From a bacterium (GTDB lineage: Bacteria; Electryoneota; Electryoneia; Electryoneales; Electryoneaceae): a DNA stretch of 64,000 nt. The notes beneath the pieces were generated by a model that ran no database searches, was not told where the DNA came from, and saw only the letters and a program-made list of their open reading frames with translations. The position numbers and the translations under genes are program-made. The stretch is taken from assembly GCA_963669175.1 (NCBI GenBank), contig OY769902.1, positions 1,743,515-1,807,514 of the forward strand, read 5' to 3'. This document shows, in pieces, positions 5,772 through 55,427 of this stretch (its first letter is position 1; the number at the start of each line of letters is the position of its first letter).

Positions 5772-6908
5772 TCAATTTTTTCTACGACCTGATCCTTTCT
5801 TTTTAACTCTATTTAAAAACTCTGATATGCCATGATCTTGATAATATTTCCATGCTTTTCGATATCCTTTGCCATAAGCCGGATCATCATTTTCTTCAAG
5901 CTGATCCAAATGATAGTCTGCGAGTTTACTGTGAATGGATTCCAGCATAATTCGCATGGCTACATTTGCCGAGCCTTCCCGCCAGTCGGCATGGCCGCCG
6001 TCCGCATCATTCTCGTGTTGCCAGACATGAAAAAGCTCATGTGCGGCAACACCGGATAACATATCACGCGGGAGACCATAAAGAAAATAGATTGTTGTAT
6101 CTTCACGAATAACTCTTCCATTCATTGTCTCCGAGTGAACCGAGTGCAGCCCATTGGCATCACCTTCGCCGCCATGCAATTCATGTAATTGATTTTTATC
6201 AACAAGGACGATGCTGATGTCATCCAGGCTGGTGTTGAATCGGATACCGTTGGCTTCCAGCACCGCAGCGGCTTCACGGACAATCTGAGCAGCCTTCCCG
6301 GCGTCGGTGACTTCCGTTTCACGGCAGACTTCACACTGAATACGTCCATCCGCCAATTTCCAGGCGTGTCCCGGCAGAGCAAAACGTCCGCAAGAATCAC
6401 ATAATTCAACCTGGTCCTTATACTCGGCGCTGATCGTGGTTCCCCACCAGTCCGTTACATAGGGACCGAGAATAGGCTGGCCGGTGATAGCGCAAATCGG
6501 GGCAAGGTTCTCTACATAACACGATTCATGATACACCTTGCCATCAATGGTGAAGTATTTGTCCGATACAGGTGCGCCACACCATTCACAACGCGGCGAG
6601 AACTCATGGTGATAACAATCGGGGTGATAAAATTTGCCCTTGTGTTCGATATAGCTGCCATCGATACGAAACCCGCAGGCGGCGCATTTGAAGCATTCCG
6701 GATGAAAGTATTTGCCATTGGCTTCGATGTACTGGCTGGTGATTACTTTACCGCATCCGGCACAGCGTACCCTCTGTGCCAGGGCATGGGTCGGTAATAC
6801 AATCAAGCCAACTGCAGCCGGTGTCACCACACGAACAAATCGCCTGCGATCCCACTTTTCGGCATCGGCTCGACATGTTCTCTCTGTGCTGTTCTTTTTG
6901 CAAGCCAT
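5772..6908 (-). CDS. LIM-type double zinc-finger protein fused to an HExxH zinc metallopeptidase (DA1-like architecture), Tat-like signal
   Basis: N-terminus has an RRRF twin-arginine-like motif followed by a hydrophobic stretch and ALA-Q. Then C-x2-C-x16-H-x2-C-x2-C-x2-C-x19-C-x2-H, which fits the LIM consensus, followed by a second C-x2-C-x16-H-x2-C unit and CDSC...CEVC. C-terminal region carries HELFH (HExxH). Confidence 0.6.
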   Translation of the reverse strand: MACKKNSTERTCRADAEKWDRRRFVRVVTPAAVGLIVLPTHALAQRVRCAGCGKVITSQYIEANGKYFHPECFKCAACGFRIDGSYIEHKGKFYHPDCYHHEFSPRCEWCGAPVSDKYFTIDGKVYHESCYVENLAPICAITGQPILGPYVTDWWGTTISAEYKDQVELCDSCGRFALPGHAWKLADGRIQCEVCRETEVTDAGKAAQIVREAAAVLEANGIRFNTSLDDISIVLVDKNQLHELHGGEGDANGLHSVHSETMNGRVIREDTTIYFLYGLPRDMLSGVAAHELFHVWQHENDADGGHADWREGSANVAMRIMLESIHSKLADYHLDQLEENDDPAYGKGYRKAWKYYQDHGISEFLNRVKKKGSGRRKN

Positions 6909-7019: not shown

Positions 7020-7634
7020 AGCAATCAGCCTGCTTCAGCAGGCTCTTTTTAGCACCCGGCTGAAGCCCTGTCTCTTGCTCACATCTTCGTGTTTCTGCCA
7101 CCCCAGAGGGGGTGGTATATTTTAGTGTAGGGTTGACGCTGTCTGTTTAGCGTCTACCCTACGAAAAAGATCAAACCTTATCTCAACCCTGGAAGGGTTG
7201 CATAACGTATAATTTACACCCAATTGGTTTGTATAGAATATAAAATGCGTTATTTCCTGTATTTATTGAACGTACTAATATGAATCGCGTATTATGCAAC
7301 CCTTCCAGGGTTGATTATTCGTTAGAATACCTGACATAGTGTACAGGCCAAACAGACGGCCTGTACACTATGCTAAAATAGGGAATCCCGCCGGGATTCT
7401 AAAAATGCTATGTCCACAACTCTTTTACTGATACAGCTTTCAGAAGATGTGAGTAAGAGACAGGGCTTTAGCCGGGTGGATTAGTGTAACTAAATAAAAG
7501 AGCGCGCTTTAGCGTGCTTGCTTGAACAACAGATTGCTGTTTTGGAAAGCACCCTGAAGGGCGCTCGATATAGTTGTTATCTTTGTCCCCCGGCTAAAGC
7601 CGGGGGCTAAGGGGAGCAGGCTAAAGCCTGCTAA
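7020..7634. mobile_element. composite MITE-like element (repeat family A, long copy) with nested inverted repeats
   Basis: Termini agcctgcttcagcaggct-ctttttag-cacccggctgaagcc (left) and cccccggctaaagccggggg-ctaagggg-agcaggctaaagcctgct (right) are inverted relative to each other. The same termini bound the 210-bp copy at 40126..40336. An internal segment at 7497..7585 matches the reverse complement of 40195..40275. Further nested IR pairs at 7050-7095/7425-7475 and 7190-7215/7285-7310. Confidence 0.5.
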
Positions 7635-7855
7635 TACTAATGGATAGAACCCCCTTGAGGCGAATACTTATGGATAGAATTCCCTTGAGATAGTAAACGG
7701 AAAGAAGCGCTTTTCAGAAACTGTGATAGAAGACAGATGTTTCGGCGAGAATAACTTTCGCTAATCTGAAGCCGCAAGAACTTCCGAGAATACCATACGT
7801 GGAACATATCCATTGTGACACGGTACAAGTTTCAGGACGAAAACAGGCTGGATTC

Positions 7856-9808
7856 ATGCGTAACGATAGATATACATATTTGTTGATTATTTCCCTGCTG
7901 GCTTTCTCCTTTTTCCCACTGGAGAAATCAATAGCACAATCCCGCAATGTTGTGGTTCCTCGATCCCAGCAGACAGAAGAAATCCGTCAGGAAGCGACCA
8001 GGAAAAGCCGTACCGCTACCAGGCTTGAGCAAAGAGGGCAAATCGACGAGGCGTTGGCAATCTGGGATTTACTGGCGGACCAATTTCCCGACAACAGCTC
8101 CTATTTTGAAGGGCAGGTGCGTTGCCTGACCACGTTGGCCAGGTATAATGAAGCTGCAAGGTTACTGGAAGAGCGGATACCGCTGGAGATAGACCAGCGC
8201 CAGAAAGCGGAATACCTGGTGCGGCTTGGCGGGGTGTACCAGAAACTGAACAAACCGACCCAGGCCGAGGTCAATTACCGTCAGGCCGAGGAGACCGCTC
8301 GAGGGGTGGAAGGCGCTTATCATGCGGTGGCCATGGAGTTTCTGCGTCAACGTCAAACAGAGCGGGCGATTAGCATTTTAAAGTCTTCGCGAGTTGATCT
8401 CGAGAACCCCTATTTGCACGCGTTTACCATCGCATCCCTGAAACAGAATACCATGGACTGGGCCGGAGCGACCGAAGAATACCTGTTGGCGCTCCAGGAA
8501 AGCGGCACACGCAGGCAATCCGTCCTGCGGTCTTTTGCCACTTTCCCCAACGATCCGAATACGGATAAAGCTGTTGAGGCCAGCATTCGTGCGGAGCTGG
8601 ACCGTACCGAGAAGGAGCAGCCCTGGCCCGGGTATCGAGACGCTCTGTGGCAAATCCTGATCGATCAACGGATCAAGAGCGGCAATTTTGAAGGCGCTGT
8701 GGATCTGCTGGAAACAATCCAGGAGGAAGAGGGCGAAGAGGGCTGGCTGCTTCAGTTCGCCCAGACAGCCGTAGACGAAGGCGCGCACGATGCTGCCAGA
8801 CGTGCGCTGGAGATAGCAGCGCAACGCACGCAAAGTGAAAATCGACGCGCTGAAGTTGATCTTGCCCTGGCGACCCTGGTGCAAGCAGAAGGCGATTTCT
8901 CGCAGGCGGACAGTTTGTATGGCACTGTTATCGGAAGGCTGGAGAAGAATCCTACCCTGGCTTATTCAGCCCTGATCCGGCGTGGACAGATGCGATTGAC
9001 GTATGTCGATAATCCATTGGGGGCGTTGGAAGATTTCGAACACCTTGCCGAATTGCAGGGTAAGCAGGTGGAGCAACAGGTTGAGTACCTGCTGGCTGCC
9101 ACACTGCTTCGTCTGCACCGGTATGATGAAGCGCGTCCACATCTGCAACAGACGATTTCGCCCCAACTTCCTGACGAGCCTCAGCGCGGAAGAAGACGTC
9201 CAAGGCAACCGGTTGCCTACGATGCCGGACTGGGCGCTCATGCCGCGTATCTGAATGCACGGTTATCATGGTGGGAGAACAACCCGGAACGAACAACCGC
9301 TATCCTCGATAGCATGCTGAAGCATCCCACCGGCGCAGAAGTGGAAAACGAAGCGTTTGACCTGCTTTTCCTGCTGAGCAGTAAAGCGGATTCAAGTATT
9401 CTCCGTCGATTTGCACAAACAGACCAGGCATTGTTTGAACAACGAGTAGAAGATGCGGAGAACATGCTCGCGTCCATTGCTACGGACACCGCATCATCCT
9501 TGTCCGCAAACGCTTCCTGGTGGCTGGTGGAAATCGCTGTGCAGACCGGGGCGGAGGATGTCCCGGAAGTTGTTGACGCTTATGTCACGCAGTATCCGGG
9601 CACCCCGCGTGCAGAAGAGGCATGGCTGAACCTGGGAATCTGGTATGAGGATCAGGGCTTGACTGATGAAGCGAAAACCTGCTATGAAACGATACTTATC
9701 GACTATTATGACGGCCTGCTGACCTCGGAGGCACGATTGCGCCTGGATCAACTGGCGGGAATGGAACTGCCGCCCCTGCAACCACCTTCGCCTTTTGAGA
9801 CGCCGTAG
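7856..9808 (+). CDS. tetratricopeptide-repeat (TPR) protein with N-terminal signal/anchor
   Basis: ATG at 7856 gives MRNDRYTYLLIISLLAFSFFPLEKSIA (signal-like). The rest is alpha-helical with repeated A/L/Y/E-rich 34-residue periodicity typical of TPR arrays. Track start 7799 is GTG. Confidence 0.6.
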   Translation: MRNDRYTYLLIISLLAFSFFPLEKSIAQSRNVVVPRSQQTEEIRQEATRKSRTATRLEQRGQIDEALAIWDLLADQFPDNSSYFEGQVRCLTTLARYNEAARLLEERIPLEIDQRQKAEYLVRLGGVYQKLNKPTQAEVNYRQAEETARGVEGAYHAVAMEFLRQRQTERAISILKSSRVDLENPYLHAFTIASLKQNTMDWAGATEEYLLALQESGTRRQSVLRSFATFPNDPNTDKAVEASIRAELDRTEKEQPWPGYRDALWQILIDQRIKSGNFEGAVDLLETIQEEEGEEGWLLQFAQTAVDEGAHDAARRALEIAAQRTQSENRRAEVDLALATLVQAEGDFSQADSLYGTVIGRLEKNPTLAYSALIRRGQMRLTYVDNPLGALEDFEHLAELQGKQVEQQVEYLLAATLLRLHRYDEARPHLQQTISPQLPDEPQRGRRRPRQPVAYDAGLGAHAAYLNARLSWWENNPERTTAILDSMLKHPTGAEVENEAFDLLFLLSSKADSSILRRFAQTDQALFEQRVEDAENMLASIATDTASSLSANASWWLVEIAVQTGAEDVPEVVDAYVTQYPGTPRAEEAWLNLGIWYEDQGLTDEAKTCYETILIDYYDGLLTSEARLRLDQLAGMELPPLQPPSPFETP

Positions 9809-9811
9809 AGA

Positions 9812-9860
9812 AGTGAAAAACGTAAAGAAAGTGAAAAAGGTGAAAAAAGTGAGAAGCGTA
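9812..9860. repeat. phased 9-bp GTGAAAAAN tract (repeat family D)
   Basis: gaagtgaaaaacgtaaagaaagtgaaaaaggtgaaaaaagtgagaag directly after the TPR stop codon. The same periodic motif recurs at 54475..54540. Confidence 0.4.
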
Positions 9861-9892: not shown

Positions 9893-11476
9893 TCACAACT
9901 TTATATCAAGTGAATCTTTCACCTTCCTGACAACGTAAATCCATTCCTGGCCAACACGTAGTGAGTCGCTCGGGCTGAATCCCGCAAGATCCGTCAGCAC
10001 AATACCGCGTTGCGAAGAATCGTCTGGCGCCAGTCCGATAACCAGGAGTCGATTACTGCCCTGGAATACGCTGTCCGGGAGTGGGGAAGGACAGGCAATT
10101 CTTGTGCGCTCACGTTCATGCTGTGCGATAGTTATCTGCAAGTTGGCAGACGATATATTCCGTACCTGTATCGTATTCAATGTGGGAAAATCGACCATTG
10201 CCGCGCGTGAGGAATAGGAACCATCGAAAAACACCAGGGCTGCTTCTCCTTCCGGATCAAGGCTGATAATCGCATCACGCCACTCGCCAAGGTTTCTGTC
10301 GTTCGCTTTTATACTGCTTGCAGTGCAAGGCGGTGTGATGGCATACACTTGCCATGGATGGGTAAACCAGAGCAGCGACAGTAAAAGGACGACACCTGTC
10401 GCGGACCAGGCCTGCCAGGAACTGCGTGCCGCAAACACAAGCATCAAAGCGGCTATCAGGGTCAACGCCGGGACCAGCAGCAGGAAATAGCCGTCATGAA
10501 ACAACACAACTAATGCGATTACGGGCAAGATTGTCCAGGCCAGGAAAAAGGAACGGATGTAACTGTCCTGATCACGCCATGCAGCCCAGAGCACATGAAG
10601 CCGGGGCAGCAGGGCTACGGGGGCAAAACCGATAGCCAGCAGCAAATATATCCCTGAATGGCTCAGTTGATAGAGAAGGCTTCGTGTTGTGGTATGGAAT
10701 CTGCCGATTTCGAAATCCCGTATCCCGCGAGCGAGGTATTCCACACCCTGACCGGATGCGATTGCAGCGGGCAGAAACCATAACAGGATGCCAATGAGCA
10801 AAGCGGCAAGCGAGGTCAGCATGTGCGATGAACGGGCGTAATCCTTTTTCATTCCCCACACCAGCAATGGGATGAGCAACAGGCTTTCCGGACGCCAACC
10901 CCCCATCCACCCGATAAAAAACGCGGCAATACTCCAGTACCACAGGCTTCTTTTATCCCAGAGTACCAGCCATGCTCCAAGAATACTGATCACAGCAGAT
11001 GCGGAGTAACTCAAGCCGATTTCACTGTAAAACCAGAGCAGGGGATTAAATGCCATCAACACAGCGGCCAGGAGGGCGAACAGCTCCGCTTCCTGCAAGT
11101 TCAGGCCGATACGTTCTGCCAATGGACCACGCGCGAACCAGTGTAAAAGGAAAATCGCCAGCAGGGTTTGTAACAGCGATGCGGCATGCAAAACATCCAG
11201 TGCGGCGCCCTGAATCAGGAGACGAAGCGCCTGTAAAACCAGCACATGGTTCAGGTAACCGGGGAAATGAGGCATGTCTTCACCCGGATGCCATCCGTCA
11301 ACCGCCATGATGAAATTGAAGCTTTCCCAACCGTATGGCTCGGCGGCGACATAGGGGAGACGGCTGACCAGGGTGATCAGTAGCAACAGCCAGATACCGT
11401 AACGGTAAAAGGCGGTGCCACCCGTGGTCAGAGCTTGATCTGCCGTGTTCAGGCTTGCTTCCTGGGGTGAACTCAT
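9893..11476 (-). CDS. polytopic integral membrane protein, possibly a GT-C-type glycosyltransferase (ArnT/PMT-like)
   Basis: 527 aa. About 10 predicted hydrophobic helices followed by a C-terminal soluble domain of roughly 170 aa. Architecture resembles GT39/GT83 enzymes. Family assignment is a guess from topology only. Confidence 0.4.
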   Translation of the reverse strand: MSSPQEASLNTADQALTTGGTAFYRYGIWLLLLITLVSRLPYVAAEPYGWESFNFIMAVDGWHPGEDMPHFPGYLNHVLVLQALRLLIQGAALDVLHAASLLQTLLAIFLLHWFARGPLAERIGLNLQEAELFALLAAVLMAFNPLLWFYSEIGLSYSASAVISILGAWLVLWDKRSLWYWSIAAFFIGWMGGWRPESLLLIPLLVWGMKKDYARSSHMLTSLAALLIGILLWFLPAAIASGQGVEYLARGIRDFEIGRFHTTTRSLLYQLSHSGIYLLLAIGFAPVALLPRLHVLWAAWRDQDSYIRSFFLAWTILPVIALVVLFHDGYFLLLVPALTLIAALMLVFAARSSWQAWSATGVVLLLSLLWFTHPWQVYAITPPCTASSIKANDRNLGEWRDAIISLDPEGEAALVFFDGSYSSRAAMVDFPTLNTIQVRNISSANLQITIAQHERERTRIACPSPLPDSVFQGSNRLLVIGLAPDDSSQRGIVLTDLAGFSPSDSLRVGQEWIYVVRKVKDSLDIKL

Positions 11477-14245: not shown

Positions 14246-14480
14246 GTACATTGTATGGTTGAAAGCAAAGAGATGGAAAAAGGGGACTGCCTCCTTTCCC
14301 TGGAGTAAAACTATCCCACTGTGAACATGGACCGGGAAAGGTGGCTGTACCCTTTTCCTTGCGAGCAGGCAAGTAGTCCATGGAAAAGGGTACAGTTTCC
14401 TTTTCTGCAAGTTCAGCGAGAGTGTTTTGTGCGAGCATGAAGAAAAGGATTCCGTCCCCTTTTCCTGACAGCATGTCTAT
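14246..14480. repeat. repeat family B, copy 1 (about 235-bp hairpin-rich element)
   Basis: Shares roughly 80-90% identity with 35414..35663 and 44698..44962. Built from four imperfect palindromic modules of GGAAAAGG...CCTTTTCC type. Short ORFs inside differ in length between copies. Confidence 0.6.
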
Positions 14481-16384: not shown

Positions 16385-16564
16385 AGACCTGACGAAACTG
16401 GCGCTGCATTAGACCTGACGAATCTGGCGCTGCATTAGACCTGATGAAACTGGCGCTGAATTAGACCTGATGAAACTGGTGCTGCATTAGACCTGACGAA
16501 ACTGGCATGGAGTAGACCTGACGAAACTGGCGCTGCATTAGACCTGACGAAACTGGCATGGAGT
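16385..16564. repeat. tandem array, 7 copies of a 25/26-bp unit (agacctgacgaaactggcgctgcatt)
   Basis: Seven head-to-tail units with a few substitutions; two units end in ggcatggagt. No spacers, so not CRISPR. Lies between the BI-1 gene and a small OMP gene. Confidence 0.85.
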
Positions 16565-27995: not shown

Positions 27996-28030
27996 CTCGC
28001 TCTCCCTTTTTAGATCCACTCACAGGCTTA

Positions 28031-28065
28031 ACAGGATAATAGGATGAAAGGATTTCAAGGATGAT
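28031..28065. promoter_or_regulatory. (AGGAT)n direct-repeat module upstream of dapB
   Basis: acaggataataggatgaaaggatttcaaggat. The same module occurs upstream of dapA (29714..29746) and glnA (31408..31447). Confidence 0.35.
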
Positions 28066-28788: not shown

Positions 28789-29682
28789 TCAGCTTGCAAC
28801 TAACGATAGTTCTCGCAATACAGCCAAAATTACTTCTTCCGATTCGGGACGGATTGGCGCCAGTGGCGGACGTACAGTCCCAGCGGGCAGGCCCATTTGA
28901 TTCAAAGCAAACTTGGCAGGGCCGGGGCTGGTTTCGATGAACAGCGCTGAGACCAGGCTGGCAAAACTACGATGTAACTTGTACGCTTCCACATCGTTAC
29001 CGTCGTTTTCCAGCTCCCACTGTTTCACGACCAGTTCTGGGACGATGTTGGACAGCACACTGACCGTGCCCGAGCCACCGATTTGCCAGATAGGCAGGTT
29101 CTGACCGTCTTCGCCGCTGAATACTGTAAGCTCATTACCAACACGCCAGATCAGATCCCATATCTGGGTCAGGTCGCCGGATGCTTCCTTTATGGCAGCT
29201 ATCGACGGAATCTCCATCAGTCGTTCTGCCGTCGCGGGTTTCAAGTTCACACCAGTGCGTCCGGGCACGTTATATACCATGATCGGAATCTCCGGTACCG
29301 CTTCGGCGATCATGGAAAAGTGGCGAACCAGTCCGTCCGGGGTCGGTTTGTTGTAATAGGGAGTGATGACCAGCGCGCCATCCACGCCCAGTTCATGAGC
29401 GCGTCTCGTGCGTTCGATACTCTTGACCGTATTGTTGGTGCCGGTGCCGACGACGATAGTCGCCTTGCCCTTCGCTTCACGCACGGCGATGCGGATCACC
29501 GTTTCCCACTCGTTCATGGTCATCGCAGGCGCTTCACCAGTGGTGCCACAGGGGACCAGTCCGTGAATACCCGCTTCCACCTGGCGCTTCACCAAGGCCG
29601 CGTACGCAGCTTCATCCAATGAACCATCTTCCCTGAACGGGGTCACTAACGCTGTAAAAACTCCCTGCCAGTCTACTCGCAT
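28789..29682 (-). CDS. dapA: 4-hydroxy-tetrahydrodipicolinate synthase
   Basis: GLVPCGTTGE motif near the N-terminus, TIM-barrel length, Schiff-base lysine region. Confidence 0.88.
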   Translation of the reverse strand: MRVDWQGVFTALVTPFREDGSLDEAAYAALVKRQVEAGIHGLVPCGTTGEAPAMTMNEWETVIRIAVREAKGKATIVVGTGTNNTVKSIERTRRAHELGVDGALVITPYYNKPTPDGLVRHFSMIAEAVPEIPIMVYNVPGRTGVNLKPATAERLMEIPSIAAIKEASGDLTQIWDLIWRVGNELTVFSGEDGQNLPIWQIGGSGTVSVLSNIVPELVVKQWELENDGNDVEAYKLHRSFASLVSALFIETSPGPAKFALNQMGLPAGTVRPPLAPIRPESEEVILAVLRELSLVAS

Positions 29683-29713
29683 GCTTCCACTCCCAATATC
29701 TTACCGCAGGACT

Positions 29714-29890
29714 CACAGGATAATAGGATGAAAGGATGCCAAGGATAACTGCACAAATATACTTAAAAGATAAAGAAAAGCAATGATACGATTAGAATAA
29801 TAAATGCTATTAATCAATAATATAATTTGTCACCCATAAAATGTGTTTTTATCCTTGAAATCCTTCTATCCTATCATCCTGTTAAGCCTG
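29714..29890. promoter_or_regulatory. dapA upstream module: (AGGAT)n array, AT-rich spacer, inverted (ATCCT)n array
   Basis: cacaggataataggatgaaaggatgccaaggat (29714..29746), about 100 bp of AT-rich DNA, then atccttgaaatccttctatcctatcatcctgt (29851..29882). Same architecture as the glnA upstream module. Confidence 0.4.
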
Positions 29891-29945
29891 TTTTGTATCC
29901 TGAATATCTGTTGAAATCCTGTTTATCCTGTAAATGCTTGCTCGT

Positions 29946-31361
29946 TTAAATGTCGTAATACAGCTCAAACTCCCACGGATGCGGCCGTTGACGAAGCGCG
30001 TTCACTTCACGGTCGCGTTTGTACCAGATCCAGGTATCTACAACATCCTCCGTGAACACATTCCCCTTGTACAGGAAGTCCTGATCGGCTTCAAGGGCGT
30101 CAAGCGCATCGGCCAGTGTCGGCGGGGTTTCCGGCACATTGTCCAGCTCTTCCGGTTCCAGGTCATACATGTTCTTGTCCAGCGGATCGCCGGGATGGAT
30201 GCGGTTCTGGATGCCGTCAAGCCCGGCCATCAGCATGGCGCTGAAGGCAAGGTAGGGATTGCAGGAGCTGTCCGGGACACGGAACTCCACACGTTTCGCC
30301 TTCGGACTGTTGGAATACATGGGAATCCGGATTGCCGCGCTACGGTTACGTTGGCTGTAGGTCAGGCGTGTCGGCGCTTCGAAGCCGGGAATCAGGCGCT
30401 TGTAACTGTTCGTGGTTGGGTTGGTGAAGGCGCACAACGCCGGGGCATGCTTCAGGATACCGCCAATGAAATGCAGCGCCATCTCCGACATGCCGGCATA
30501 ATGATCACCGGCGAACAGAGGAGTTTCCCCGTTCCACAGGCTCATGTGAACGTGCATTCCGCTGCCGTTATCGCCATAGATCGGTTTCGGCATGAAGGTC
30601 GCGGTTTTGTTATGACGGTGCGCGACATTCTTGACCACATATTTGAAAAGCTGCAGGTTGTCCGCCATACGGAGCAGCGGGCTGAACTGCATGTCAATCT
30701 CGCCCTGTCCACCGGTCGCGACTTCATGGTGATGCGCTTCAACCGTGATATTCAGCGATTCAAGAATCATCGCCATTTCGCTACGCAGATCCTGGGTGGC
30801 ATCCTGCGGCGGTACCGGGAAATAGCCCTCTTTGTAACGTGGTTTGTACCCAAGGTTCGGGTTCTCTTCCCGCCCGGAATTCCAATGTCCTTCAACAGAA
30901 TCGATGTGGAAATAGCCTTCATGAGCGTTCTGGTCATAACGAATATCGTCAAAGATGAAAAACTCCGCTTCCGGGCCGACAAACACCGTGTCCGCCTGTC
31001 CCAGGGAACGCATGTACTCCTCGGCTTTGCGTGCGAGGGTACGTGGGCACTTGCTGTACGGCAGCATGGTTGTCGGTTCAATGATATCGCAGAACAGGAT
31101 CAGGGTTGGAGTGGAGGCGAAGGGATCGAGTACGGCTGTGGAAGCGTCAGGACGCACCAGCATGTCGGACTCGTTGATCTGCCGCCAGCCACGGATGCTG
31201 CTGCCGTCGAAACCGTAGCCCGACTCAAAATCCTCATGCTTCAATCGACCGACCGGGATGGTGAAATGCTGCCATAATCCGGGGAAATCCATGAAACGAA
31301 GATCGACCATGGTGATGCCACGGCTCTTGATCAATTCGAACAGATCATGAATCAGATCCAT
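29946..31361 (-). CDS. glnA: glutamine synthetase, type I
   Basis: GS signature regions ([34 protein letters not shown]). About 470 aa from ATG 31361 (MDLIHDLF...), preceded by AGGAGAAGA. Confidence 0.9.
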
Positions 31362-31407
31362 CTGTCTTCTCCTTCTATGTTCGCTTTTTCTTTTCCGACC
31401 TTTGGGA

Positions 31408-31578
31408 CTCACAGGATATTAGGATGATAGGATGATAAGGATAAGGCGAAAAGTTCTATTGAAAAGAAAAGATTTTCATTTGATCTTTCAAAAGTAAATA
31501 ATAAATAATTGATTACAGGGTTCTTGCTAATATTTTGTATCCTTGATATCCTTCTATCCTATCATCCTGTGCGACATG
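31408..31578. promoter_or_regulatory. glnA upstream module: (AGGAT)n array, AT-rich spacer, inverted (ATCCT)n array
   Basis: cacaggatattaggatgataggatgataaggat (31408..31447), AT-rich spacer, then tatccttgatatccttctatcctatcatcctgt (31538..31572). Lies between glnB and glnA. Confidence 0.4.
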
Positions 31579-35413: not shown

Positions 35414-35663
35414 ATGGTTGGAATAAAGGATAAGGATATGGAAAAAGGGGACAGTTTCCTTTCCCTGGGGCAAAGCCTTCCCGCTGTGAGCATGGACCGG
35501 GAAAGGTGGCTGTACCCTTTTTCTTGAGAGCAGGCAGGACGTACACGGAAAAGGGTACAGTTTCCTTTTCCACAAGTTCGGCGAGAGTTTTTCATATGCG
35601 CGCGAGGAAAAGGATCCCGTCCCCTTTTCCCGGCAATCCTTATTATGTCGGAATAAAATCGAG
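35414..35663. repeat. repeat family B, copy 2
   Basis: Aligned with 14246..14480 and 44698..44962. Ends in ggaataaaatcgagaa as copy 3 does. Confidence 0.6.
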
Positions 35664-35772: not shown

Positions 35773-36045
35773 ATCCCCGGCTTCGACCGGGGATCTCGCG
35801 GGATATCGTGTAAAGCCCGTTTGGCACTACTTGTGCGTCGTGGTGTACGTCTAACAGTCGGGATACTGGTAGCGCAACCTCGAGATCCCCGTTCAAGCCG
35901 GGGATGACATGGGGATGGGGGATGGGGATGGGGGATGGGGATGACATGGGGATGGGGATGACATGGGGATGGGGTGGGGATGACATAGGGACTGGGGGAT
36001 GGGGATGACATGGGGATGGGGGATGGGGATGACATGGATATTGGG
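35773..36045. repeat. hairpin repeats (family C) plus G-rich heptamer tandem tract
   Basis: Hairpins atccccggcttcgaccggggat and gagatccccgttcaagccggggatgacat, followed by about 140 bp of GGGGATG/GGGGATGACAT units. The overlapping 173-aa minus-strand ORF is a low-complexity artefact. Confidence 0.7.
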
Positions 36046-40125: not shown

Positions 40126-40336
40126 AGCAATCAGCCTGCTTCAGCAGGCTCTTCTTAGCACCCGGCTTCAGTCGGGGTGTTCATGGTGACAAAGAAATGA
40201 CGAGCGCCCTTCAGGGTGCTTTCCTGAATCAGGACTTGTACAAGGCAAGCACGCTAAAGCGCGCTCAGAATGATCTCCGCATCTTTACACCCCGGCTGAA
40301 GCCGGGTGCTAAAAAGAGCAGGCTAAAGCCTGCTAA
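40126..40336. mobile_element. MITE-like element (repeat family A, short copy) with terminal inverted repeats
   Basis: Left end agcctgcttcagcaggct-cttcttag-cacccggcttcagtcggggtg. Right end caccccggctgaagccgggtg-ctaaaaag-agcaggctaaagcctgct. Together these form a roughly 45-bp TIR around a 110-bp core. Termini match those of 7020..7634. Confidence 0.55.
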
Positions 40337-40342
40337 AATTGT

Positions 40343-40414
40343 CAGATAGCAGAATGAATTCAGATTGCAGAATGAATTCAGATTGCAGAATGAATTCAGA
40401 TAGCAGAATAAATA
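40343..40414. repeat. tandem array, 4 copies of an 18-bp unit (cagattgcagaatgaatt)
   Basis: Direct head-to-tail repeats immediately right of the MITE-like element. Confidence 0.8.
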
Positions 40415-43185: not shown

Positions 43186-44664
43186 TTGATATACTCGGTT
43201 TTGTTGAATTACTCAGGTCTTGCAAAAAGTAAAAGGCATGGTTCATTTTACAACCAAGAAGACGCCAAATCTCTTCAGTTGTAAAGGAGATAACCATGCC
43301 TGTCATAACATCGTCATTTTTTGAGTTACTTGCAAGTTTTCGTCCGGTGTTTCGGAAGCCTGTTTATGAGAATTTTGTACTGTTGGCTATCGGCGCTGTA
43401 TTGAATTTCGGTCGTCAGACAGTCTGTCAGTTATTACGTGTATTTCCCGGACCGGTAGCGAAGAGTTGGTCTTGTTATCACCATTTTCTTTCGTCTGCCA
43501 ACTGGTCCGCCCTGAAACTGGCAAAGATTCTCTGCTCTTTGATACTTGATCAGATTGCCGAACGTGATCCGATCCTTCTGATCGTGGATGATACCCTGAT
43601 CCGTCGTTGGGGAAAGCATGTTTACCAGATATCCGTTCACCGCGATCCCGTCCGTTCGGGCAAAGCAGGGACAAAAGTCGTTTATGCTCGCGGTCTTCAA
43701 TGGATGGTGATTTCGATTGGTTTGCGCACCCGTTATCGTTCGCAGATCTGGGCGCTTCCTGTATTCGTGTTTCCGGAGATCGCCAAAAAGCGTGTTCCGG
43801 AATCGAAGTACCGCAGTCCTGTACACCTGATCATTCTCGGGGCGCGTCTGCTGCTTCGATGGTTCCCGGACCGCCGTTTCCTTATCCTTGCCGACGGTAC
43901 GTTGAACTCCCACGAACTTCACCGTTTCGTGGCGAAAGAGAACCGTCTTGCTATCATCGGGCATTCGCGTATGGATACGGTGCTGCATGATCCGCCGCCT
44001 CCACCGAACGGGAAACGTGGACGTCCGCGCAAAGTCGGTGACCGTTTGCCCGCACCGGGACAAGAGGCGAAAAAGCCGGATGCTGCCTGGGAAAAAGCGT
44101 CTTGCCTCTGGTATGGGAACAAGACAAAAGACCTGTTGCTGCTTTCCGGTGTTGGCTGCTGGTACCGTTCCGGGGAAGATGTTGTCCTGATACGCTGGGT
44201 GGTGGCGCGTGATCCCGACGGCAAAAACAAGGACATTGTCTTATCTACATCCAAAACAGACTTAACCCCGGCCCAGGTTGTCAGCTCATATGTACGACGA
44301 TGGGCGTTGGAAACCACGTTTGAAGAGTCACGGAAACATCTGCGTATCGAAACGACAGAAAACTGGTCAAAAAAATCGATTCAAAGAACAGTGCCCCTGC
44401 TGTTTGGCTTGTTCAGTCTGATGGTTGTTTGGTATAGTCAGCAGCCAGAGCAGAAAGCTGTTGCGCAAACAGAGTGGTACACAAAACTGGAACCCAGTTT
44501 CTCAGACGTGCATCAGGCATTGCGTGCTGAATTGTGGATGCAGGCGATTTTTCCCGAATGCAAGCAGCCACGCGGATTCTTAAAAAAGAAAAGCAATATC
44601 CTTAAATTCCTTATTCACAAAGCCGCTTGATCCGCTAAAATGAGCAAAACCGAGTGATATAGTT
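43186..44664 (+). mobile_element. insertion sequence (IS4/IS701-superfamily), apparently intact
   Basis: Single transposase ORF flanked by imperfect terminal inverted repeats tgatatactcggttttg (43188..43204) and caaaaccgagtgatata (44646..44662), which share an 11-bp perfect core. Confidence 0.6.
43296..44630 (+). CDS. DDE transposase (IS4/IS701 superfamily)
   Basis: Candidate catalytic residues in LIVDDT and ILADG, and the Y-x2-R-x3-E-x6-K signature in YVRRWALETTFEESRKHL. 444 aa. Confidence 0.75.
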   Translation: MPVITSSFFELLASFRPVFRKPVYENFVLLAIGAVLNFGRQTVCQLLRVFPGPVAKSWSCYHHFLSSANWSALKLAKILCSLILDQIAERDPILLIVDDTLIRRWGKHVYQISVHRDPVRSGKAGTKVVYARGLQWMVISIGLRTRYRSQIWALPVFVFPEIAKKRVPESKYRSPVHLIILGARLLLRWFPDRRFLILADGTLNSHELHRFVAKENRLAIIGHSRMDTVLHDPPPPPNGKRGRPRKVGDRLPAPGQEAKKPDAAWEKASCLWYGNKTKDLLLLSGVGCWYRSGEDVVLIRWVVARDPDGKNKDIVLSTSKTDLTPAQVVSSYVRRWALETTFEESRKHLRIETTENWSKKSIQRTVPLLFGLFSLMVVWYSQQPEQKAVAQTEWYTKLEPSFSDVHQALRAELWMQAIFPECKQPRGFLKKKSNILKFLIHKAA

Positions 44665-44697: not shown

Positions 44698-44962
44698 GAG
44701 ATCCACTGTATGGTTAATGGTTAGAGGAAAGGAAATGGAAAAAGGGGACTGCCTCCTTTCCCCGGGGTAAAGCCTTCCCGCTGTGAAAATGGACCGGGAA
44801 AGGTGGCTGTACCTTTTTTCTTGAGAACAGGCTGGAATTATACGGAAAAGGGGATAGCTTCCTTTCCCACGAGTTCAGCTAGCGTTTTTTGTGTGAGTGC
44901 GAGGAAAAGGATTCCGTCTCCTTTTCCCGACAATCTCATCACAACGGAATAAAATCGAGAAT
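44698..44962. repeat. repeat family B, copy 3
   Basis: Directly right of the IS. Aligned with copies at 14246 and 35414. Confidence 0.6.
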
Positions 44963-54468: not shown

Positions 54469-54474
54469 CGGGAA

Positions 54475-54540
54475 GTGAAAAAAGTAGACAGTGAATAAAG
54501 TGAAAAAAGTAAAGAAGGTAAAAAATGTAAAGAAAGTCAT
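54475..54540. repeat. phased 9-bp GTRAAAAAN tract (repeat family D)
   Basis: gtgaaaaaagtagacagtgaataaagtgaaaaaagtaaagaaggtaaaaaatgtaaagaaagt directly after the cyclase stop. Confidence 0.4.
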
Positions 54541-54667
54541 TTGACGGGCAAGTGTGGCCCGATCCGCAAGTGACGTAACTTCCACTTTCCATTCAACAAC
54601 AATACTCCCACGACATCTCCATTCTATCCATACTCATGAGCGCATCGGGACGTGTCGTAAAGGTTGC

Positions 54668-54756
54668 AGGAAAAGGGGACTGTTTCCTTTTCGTTGCGCT
54701 GAGATATATGATTATAAATACAGGGGATCGAAAAGGGGACTGTCCCCTTTTCCATG
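54668..54756. repeat. repeat family B, partial/degenerate copy
   Basis: Two palindromic modules ggaaaaggggactgtttccttttc and gaaaaggggactgtccccttttcc about 50 bp apart. Confidence 0.45.
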
Positions 54757-55427
54757 AGACAAGGCTTCATCACTAACATGAGTCTGGATAAAGTTCTGTG
54801 TATTTGCCAAAGACTCGAAAGCTGCCACATTCCCGACTCACTCATAGTCGCGTCATGGATTGTCACTTCAGCACAGTACCCATCACGAACGACAGCGTCA
54901 GTTCCATCACGTACGAGTCGGGCCACCCGAGCTTGCTGCACAGGATAATGTCGTCGCCTTTGATCCGATGCGCTCAATGTTGCGTCACGTGGCATTGCTT
55001 CATCAGAGTATTCTTGAATCTGTCCACGAGGAAGCTATATCACTTGCGAGTCGGGCCACCCGAGCGGGGACTTGGGTATCCTGAACAAGGCCATCTCAAC
55101 TTAGCCTTCCTGGGTCAATGCGAAGTTCGCTGATTGACAACGCTACACATCCCGCAATCCAACCCTTTGAAAAGAATGGGCAGTCAAAATGCGAAGCGTG
55201 GTCAAGTTGAGGAATAGTGGGGAGATAGTGCTATCTGCATTGTTTTTAATTAGTTTCAATCAGCTTCAGCTTGAACTGACCAGACAGACTTCCCCCCACT
55301 TTTTCCACTAATTTCTTCTTACTTATGGATTCCTGACGAAATTTGATTATCTTATTAACACGGTGATTCTAGATTCTGCTTCGCATCGTTCGAGCAATTT
55401 CGGCACTCAACAACTGGGAGGGCCTGT

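Follow-up and report, generated by a model that had tools for sequence, protein, structure and literature searches.

Between a LIM/DA1-like gene on the minus strand (5772-6908) and a TPR gene on the plus strand (7799/7856-9808) lies a repeat-rich locus of 615 bp (7020-7634), and the question that it raises is what kind of DNA has come to fill the space between its left and right neighbour. The window, i.e. the whole 64-kb stretch of DNA analysed here, has a spacer of about 890-950 bp at this place. An earlier note had rightly located the locus in this divergent intergenic region and had described it as one long MITE-like element, whose inverted, hairpin-built termini recur in a shorter repeat at 40126-40336. 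The two loci represent the family-A copies of the window (n = 2).

The organization of the family is best seen in the short copy (40126..40336, plus strand), which is an intact, gene-less element of 211 bp and has the form of an imperfect palindrome of six hairpins, with H1-H2-H3 in its left and H4-H5-H6 in its right half. All parts are given in plus-strand orientation. A 7-nt lead, AGCAATC, precedes H1 (40133-40150; AGCCTGC-TTCA-GCAGGCT), and the 8-nt linker CTTCTTAG (40151-40158) connects it to H2 (40159-40179; CACCCGGCT-TCAG-TCGGGGTG). The core is made up of H3 (40202-40224) and H4 (40245-40266), and the right half is completed by H5 (40288-40308), the linker CTAAAAAG (40309-40316) and H6 (40317-40334; AGCAGGC-TAAA-GCCTGCT). 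Each arm thus corresponds to a hairpin pair plus its 8-nt linker, and the two arms (40133-40180 and 40287-40334, 48 nt each) are 85% complementary. Compared with shuffled sequences, the single-stranded DNA of both loci folds much more stably (short copy, z = -9.5; long locus, z = -19.7). Four occurrences of the 22-nt end motif were counted in the 64-kb window, where 0.02 are expected, and chance does not account for these figures; a search of the window for solitary hairpins of the family-A type revealed none outside the two copies, and the comparison of the whole window with Rfam at gathering thresholds gave no match.

The long locus contains the same parts in a rearranged and interrupted form. 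Its left end (7020..7067, plus strand) comprises the lead AGCAATC, H1 (7027-7044) and the linker CTTTTTAG (7045-7052), to which CACCCGGCTGAAGCC (7053-7067) is joined as the 5' part of H2, while the 3' part of this hairpin, GGCTTTAGCCGGGTG, is located at 7464..7478 and consists of a duplicated decamer (7464-7473, see below) and the adjoining positions 7474-7478. The remainder of the copy (7479..7634) carries the core hairpins in inverted orientation relative to the short copy, namely, rcH4 (7500-7521) and rcH3 (7544-7567), followed by H5 (7587-7606), the linker CTAAGGGG (7607-7614) and H6 (7615-7632), with the element end at 7634; all of these features are again given for the plus strand. The alignment of both loci substantiates the termini that the earlier note had seen, since the left ends agree in direct orientation over 42 nt (98%) and the right ends over 69 nt (80%), and the likeness to the short copy may reach about 17 nt further left of 7020, to position ~7002. 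The proposed relationship of the cores proved to be exact: 7544-7567 is the perfect reverse complement of 40201-40224 (24 nt, 100%), and the same holds true for 7500-7521 and 40245-40266 (22 nt, 100%). The inversion of the H3-H4 core relative to the ends of the 7020 copy has likely arisen by recombination between the inverted arms. The additional nested inverted pairs mentioned in the note are likewise present (7053-7088 and 7443-7478, 36 nt, 94%; 7183-7205 and 7292-7314, 23 nt, 100%). The assumption that the 615-bp locus is a single element has to be abandoned, because positions 7068-7463 constitute a separate insertion with ends of its own. The excision of 7068-7473 restores an element of 209 bp, to be compared with 211 bp in the intact copy, and rebuilds H2 as CACCCGGCTGAAGCCGGGTG. 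The locus is a family-A copy of about 209 bp plus a separate insertion of 396 bp in its hairpin H2.

This nested miniature element (7068..7463, 396 bp) is delimited by 21-nt terminal inverted repeats, CTGTCTCTTGCTCACATCTTC, whose left (7068-7088) and right (7443-7463) versions match inversely at 20 of 21 positions. It lacks an ORF of at least 60 aa, its 21-nt ends were found nowhere else in the window, and plasmids, the window and the fetched loci of relatives provided neither a further copy nor a parent insertion sequence; the viral contigs carry neither the family-A end motif nor that of the nested element. Putative copies of a target duplication are located at the tip of H2 on the left (GGCTGAAGCC, 7058..7067, plus strand) and directly behind the element on the right (GGCTTTAGCC, 7464-7473, plus strand; 8/10 match to the left copy). 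The left flank ends with CACCC GGCTGAAGCC and the right flank starts with GGCTTTAGCC GGGTG. The two halves of the duplication agree slightly better as inverted (9/10) than as direct repeats (8/10). The 36-nt repeat 7053-7088 / 7443-7478 was also considered as one single long terminal repeat, but the target-duplication reading is preferred, because the flanks rebuild H2 precisely where family A requires it. The presence of separate 21-nt ends inside H2, together with the restoration of this hairpin upon excision, is indicative of the insertion of a second miniature element into the family-A copy.

The ends CTGTCTCTTGCTCACATCTTC are alike at 18 of 21 positions to the Tn5 sequence CTGTCTCTTGATCAGATCTTG, which we take to be the inside end of IS50. 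The target duplication of IS50 measures 9 bp, and the 9-10 bp duplicated here are of similar size; unlike IS50/Tn5, which belongs to the IS4 family, the nested element has no transposase gene. The Tn5 sequence was compared in the form in which it is printed in a primer (PMC5458577). Both characteristics of a DDE-type MITE are displayed by the nested element, i.e. inverted ends (21 nt, 20/21) and a duplication of 9-10 bp (8/10); it has no relationship to family A and is presumably of DDE type. On this reading, a 396-bp element with IS50-like ends jumped into H2 of the family-A copy, thereby duplicating 9-10 bp. The window also contains an insertion sequence (43193-44655) with an ORF for a DDE_5 transposase (PF13546; 444 aa, 43296-44630) and with 18-nt inverted ends starting with ACTCGGTTTTG; the 5 bp GATAT are apparently duplicated. 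This insertion sequence was rejected as the parent of the nested element, whose ends are unrelated.

Within the nested element, a palindromic module (7118..7380) shows an inverted match of 89 nt (72%). Its long hairpins (7127-7162 and 7335-7372) have the loop GTCTGTTT in common and differ in their stems, and the hairpins 7184-7200 and 7297-7313 border an AT-rich centre of 86 nt. The module may belong to the nested element, or it may have been inserted as a third unit. The first of the long hairpins (7127-7162), a palindrome of 36 nt, opens with GTAG and closes with CTAC, which gives it a REP-like look.

The expectation that the terminal motif of family A has further copies was borne out in other uncultured bacteria, namely, in one MAG and six metagenome contigs. 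The exact-pattern scan of representative genomes with the end motif retrieved five matches, and the single true copy among them (L001) is a degenerate one from a MAG of Candidatus Hatepunaea (Electryoneota). The four matches in Clostridia-type genomes were discarded; they comprise only about 20 nt each, their number corresponds to the chance expectation (~4) and BLAST placed them at chance level. The scan of metagenomes recovered the H1-linker-H2 module on six contigs. Two of the retrieved loci, L012 and L007, harbor complete gene-less elements in opposite orientations, and in L015 the interval between H3 and H4 is occupied by an ORF of 146 aa. This in-frame ORF was recognized as Pfam Y1_Tnp (PF01797, 68 bits) and as NCBIfam IS200 (63.6 bits, cutoff 55), and it had no match to the NCBIfam model REP_Tyr_transpos.

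The hairpin frame H1-H6 surrounds a Y1 ORF at six loci (L015/L019, L016-18, L020, L021, L023), one of which derives from a Calditrichota genome (L021), and another is identical in at least five samples (L023). In L017, L019, L020, L021 and L023, the Y1 gene is located between repeats of inverted orientation. The full-length unit of about 640 bp consists of inverted arms of about 110-130 nt around the gene for a 146-aa Y1 transposase, and each arm contains three hairpins, with H3 beside the ribosome-binding site and H4 overlapping the stop codon. In its 5' half, a T-rich lead is followed by H1, CTYYYTAG, H2, a spacer, H3, the ribosome-binding site and tnpA, and in its 3' half H4 (with the stop codon in the loop) is followed by a spacer, H5, CTARGAAG and H6. 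The hairpin order of the short copy is that of the full-length elements along the sense strand of tnpA, and the arms of the window copies can be aligned column for column with those bordering tnpA genes. The frame is maintained even at transposase identities of 45-54%, and in L023 the stem of H2 is altered to CCCCCTGC/GCAGGTGGG with retention of the tip GC-TTCA-GC. Deletion intermediates exist as well: the last 15 codons of the gene are left in L012 and the first 34 in L009. The window copies are without a gene, and a tblastn search of the window with the Y1 proteins gave no match. This Y1 family also includes P0014, a protein of 143 aa that is 49-51% identical to the L015/L019 protein. P0014 forms a single-member cluster and is recorded on a contig of 5,447,365 bp, and a contig of precisely this length carries proteins with 100% identity to the TPR protein and RF1 of the window (P0064, P0069); we infer from this that P0014 is encoded in the genome to which the window belongs. 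The nearest named matches of RF1 (59-64% identity) come from Calditrichota, KSB1 and Zhuqueibacterota, which places the host among the unclassified bacteria of the FCB-group.

Some additional structures were observed at the loci of the relatives. L015 contains at 10833-11264 (corresponding to L019 from ~1133 onward) a gene for a classical IS200-type TnpA of 143 aa (Y1_Tnp, 100 bits), which adjoins the subclass-1.2-like element at its right end, where H6 is missing. A truncated second left end, consisting of H1, the linker and half of H2, precedes the full element by about 120 bp in L016 (2120-2180), L017 (275-335) and L018 (~110-160), and it also repeats the ~17 nt to the left of H1. Tandem repeats accompany the H6 side of several copies. 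In the window, a 30-mer (1.9 copies, 7633..7689, plus strand) abuts the H6 end of the long locus and an 18-mer (four copies, 40342..40413, plus strand) starts 6 nt past that of the short copy; for both arrays it is uncertain whether they are part of the element. Arrays at the right-end side are also present in L017 (~1095-1150), L021 (3524-3640) and L001 (7739-7841), and none were seen at L012, L007 and L019. The arrays at the two window copies and the three related elements are unrelated in sequence (30-mer, 18-mers and ~40-mers). Their position looks non-random, and local amplification beside a nicking site or a preference for insertion next to repeats are possible explanations.

The hairpins themselves are under evident conservation of pairing. 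Among 20 end modules, 97.3% of the cells are paired and changes on both sides were detected in 6 of 15 pairs; the corresponding values for 12 full arms are 98.3% and 11 of 20 pairs. None of 500 shuffles was as good as the observed alignment, and slid controls reached 27-41% of paired cells. The stems of H1 and H6 swap compensatorily among the copies (AGCCTGC, AGCAGGC, AGTCGGC, AGCCCGC). The linker is 8 nt long, pyrimidine-rich and has YTAG at its end, and this tetranucleotide directly precedes the bulged H2 on its 5' side in all 20 aligned modules (TAG 18, CAG 2), with H5-CTAR as the inverted partner. The consensus of H2/H5, CACCCGGC-TTNA-GCCGG(G)GTG, is conserved and bulged; the bulged G in the 3' arm of H2 is maintained, and YTAG and the bulge have both been kept at transposase identities of 45-54%. 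Certain right ends in L015 lack H6, and H1/H6 may for this reason be a separable module. The left end seems to run about 17-24 nt past H1, and the right end lies no more than a few nucleotides from H6. No consistent direct repeat was found beside either of the two window copies, and from the available copies neither an insertion target motif nor a tetranucleotide can be defined for family A.

The alignment of the Y1 proteins (143-155 aa) shows the motifs xHIH, WQ and Y[VI]xNQKEHH, with W-Q, Y, Q and H-H being invariant and N and E in Y..NQKEHH at least 90% conserved. The closest solved structures are the TnpA proteins of ISDra2 and IS608, with weak E-values, and E. coli RAYT is absent among the PDB matches. 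The TnpAY1 subclass 1.2 has been defined by Y---Q--HH (YIKNQKEHH), WQ, a length of about 148 aa, a short conserved C-terminal tail and a low copy number (Quentin et al. 2018, PMC6006769), and the family-A-linked proteins share the length, WQ, Y---Q--HH and the low copy number. They carry the motifs of subclass 1.2, by which we would assign them to it. The members of this subclass are mostly known from Cyanobacteria and Bacteroidetes; they are generally devoid of IS200-type terminal structures and have no REPs (PMC6006769). In contrast, the genes described here are enclosed by hairpins in a conserved arrangement and have gene-less counterparts, and Calditrichota, Electryoneota and unclassified bacteria of the FCB-group are among the hosts. 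The class-1 signature Y---Q--HH furthermore distinguishes the proteins from the RAYTs with their class-2 signature Y---NP.

The arrangement of the repeats is reminiscent of two known systems. REPs are palindromes of imperfect symmetry that carry a conserved tetranucleotide on their 5' side (GTAG in E. coli) and occur in inverted pairs; TnpA-REP of E. coli depends on this tetranucleotide and on an irregularity of the stem, and its cuts fall into the linker or the inverted partner (PMC3333891). As in REPs, BIMEs and REPINs (PMC3333891, PMC6006769), the units of family A are inverted, have a bulged stem and exhibit a tetranucleotide at the 5' foot, YTAG; as in REPtrons (PMC3333891, PMC6006769), a Y1 gene lies between inverted repeats and gene-less units are found elsewhere. 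The differences pertain to size and number: a REP is a single unit of 20-40 nt, whereas hairpins of three kinds are spread over the ~100 nt of a family-A arm, and REP-type repeats occur in many dispersed gene-less copies alongside one vertically inherited Y1 gene per genome, whereas family A is known here from two copies in 64 kb. With IS200/IS605 elements (IS608, ISDra2, IS200), family A and its full-length relatives share the Y1/HUH enzyme of about 146 aa, the end hairpins, the lack of a target duplication and a unit of about 640 bp. The integration of IS608-type elements is not known to leave a target duplication. IS200/IS605 elements insert 3' of a fixed tetra- or pentanucleotide and have asymmetric ends, for which long inverted repeats are not typical, unlike the family-A arms of about 110-130 nt. 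In this last respect family A differs from IS608 as well, and its full-length relatives are without tnpB. IS200/IS605 elements have subterminal hairpins instead of the small terminal inverted repeats of DDE-type insertion sequences, and TnpA of the IS608 type binds the end hairpins on single-stranded DNA and uses a single-stranded target with a short motif, TTAC (PMC5027513).

How does the locus look where the repeat is absent? The closest available relative (GCA_964648415.1, L022; RF1 84% and TPR 57% identical) shares the gene order up to the divergent LIM and TPR genes, which are separated by a spacer of 154 bp, and 28.6 kb of this assembly are free of family-A elements. The comparison of an empty with a filled site, as suggested in the earlier note, was therefore feasible, with the restriction that the empty site belongs to a distant relative with about 68% nucleotide identity in coding sequences. 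In the alignment of the two spacers, clear conservation is confined to the LIM-proximal block TTAATATACTCTAAC, and the alignment is uninformative beyond it. A segment of L022 (5978-5994) that matches nucleotides 4-20 of the element at 16 of 17 positions is unproven as a relic of an old insertion, and this reading was dropped, because by eye the segment seems to correspond to the leader of the TPR gene in the window (~7836-7853).

The surroundings of the locus have several features of their own. The left neighbour (5772-6908, minus strand) combines a LIM domain and a DA1-like peptidase domain in one bacterial protein, both of which are mostly eukaryotic, and the gene is conserved together with its neighbours in the relative (L022, 4707-5846). 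Nonanucleotide repeats of the AAGTGAAAA type are located at the 3' end of the TPR gene (9804-9860) and at 54473-54537. Another dispersed family of about 207 nt (14267-14473, 35432-35638, 44729-44935, 54667-54768; 82-86% identical) is built of GGAAAAGGGGAC...GTCCCCTTTTCC hairpins, and similar hairpins, AAAGGGGACAG, occur in L001, L015 and L019. AGGAT-rich inverted repeats of 41 nt (28022-28062 and 29851-29891, 93% complementary) have copies at 29709, 31405 and 31534 and are spaced by about 1.69 kb around the ORFs 28789-29682 and 29934-31412. Intergenic tandem arrays are found at 16385-16557 (26-mer, 6.7 copies) and 35900-36037 (GGGGATG-rich, 17-24 nt).

The most likely explanation, to which we assign a probability of about 80%, is that family A is a gene-less, non-autonomous element of the IS200/IS605 type (Y1, HUH) with a REPIN/BIME-like organization, and that the 7020 copy was later inverted in its core and interrupted. 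The grouping with REP/REPIN and IS200/IS605 hairpin elements is based on the absence of a target duplication and on the Y1/HUH transposase encoded by the relatives. These same observations limit what can be kept of the term MITE-like: family A is a non-coding repeat of mobile origin with inverted, hairpin-bearing ends, and it is not a MITE in the sense of terminal inverted repeats plus target duplication. A classical cut-and-paste MITE of the DDE type, whose inverted ends of about 45 bp would be bound as double-stranded DNA and of which the 615-bp locus would be a longer member, could account for the terminal inverted repeats and for the small size of elements without ORFs. Such an origin is nevertheless highly improbable, given that neither copy is flanked by a target duplication, that the full-length relatives possess a Y1/HUH rather than a DDE enzyme, and that the extra length of the long locus is due to the separate insertion; stem covariation, conserved loops and the bulge moreover point to a recognition of hairpins. 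Hardly more credible is a host function for the sake of which the repeats would have been kept, be it that of a terminator, an insulator, a palindrome bound by a protein or a small RNA. H1 and the T-rich linker CTTTTTAG, read inward, have a terminator-like score in a scan that relies on a weak consensus, which is one hint at the effect on LIM and TPR expression that the earlier note had considered possible, and parts of the published record describe REP-type repeats as co-opted for such roles. The lack of an Rfam match, the location of the two copies at unrelated loci, the missing element at the syntenic locus of the relative and the presence of a transposase gene in the same frame elsewhere all speak against a host function.

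The remaining alternative concerns the history of the family rather than its kind. The gene-less copies could be dead insertion sequences, each formed in place by an internal deletion and never moved in its short form, and the relatives L012, L007 and L009 are indeed independent deletion derivatives with different junctions. For the window copies this scenario is unlikely, if somewhat less so than the two preceding ones: they share one architecture and length (209 versus 211 bp), the H3-spacer-H4 junction is identical in the two, their central spacers of about 20 nt are related, and neither contains a remnant of tnpA. The common junction, length and spacer fit better with a single deleted ancestor and its subsequent spread. 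Under the preferred explanation of a non-autonomous Y1-dependent element, both copies would descend from a gene-loss derivative that left H3 and H4 about 20 nt apart. Family A is probably mobilized in trans as single-stranded DNA, with a P0014-type protein as the candidate enzyme, which would bind the YTAG-tagged imperfect hairpins and cut nearby, in analogy to TnpA at the ends of IS608 and to TnpA-REP at REPs. By the same analogy, the role of the REP would fall to YTAG with the bulged H2 and that of its inverted partner to H5-CTAR, and no target duplication would result from excision or insertion.

Elements of this kind are already well known, and the advance is incremental and modest. An anonymous repeat has become part of a defined system, for which P0014 is the candidate enzyme and YTAG plus the bulged H2/H5 are the candidate substrates. 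For the annotation of the genome, the LIM-TPR spacer of 890 bp should be regarded mostly as two nested mobile elements and not as promoter architecture. A broader proposal, which we put forward tentatively and regard as possible rather than probable, is that Y1 proteins of subclass 1.2 form the enzymatic half of a REPIN/RAYT-like partnership among bacteria of the FCB-group (Calditrichota, Electryoneota and relatives), in which a single-copy gene within an inverted frame of three hairpins spreads YTAG-tagged gene-less doublets, i.e. family A, and in which the H6-side arrays are maybe a by-product of nicking. Subclass 1.2, whose members have been regarded as orphan relatives of the IS200 transposases, is described as devoid of IS and REP features (PMC6006769), and our results suggest that it has cognate hairpin repeats in poorly studied phyla. 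If this is true, REP-like systems would reach beyond the class-2 RAYTs.
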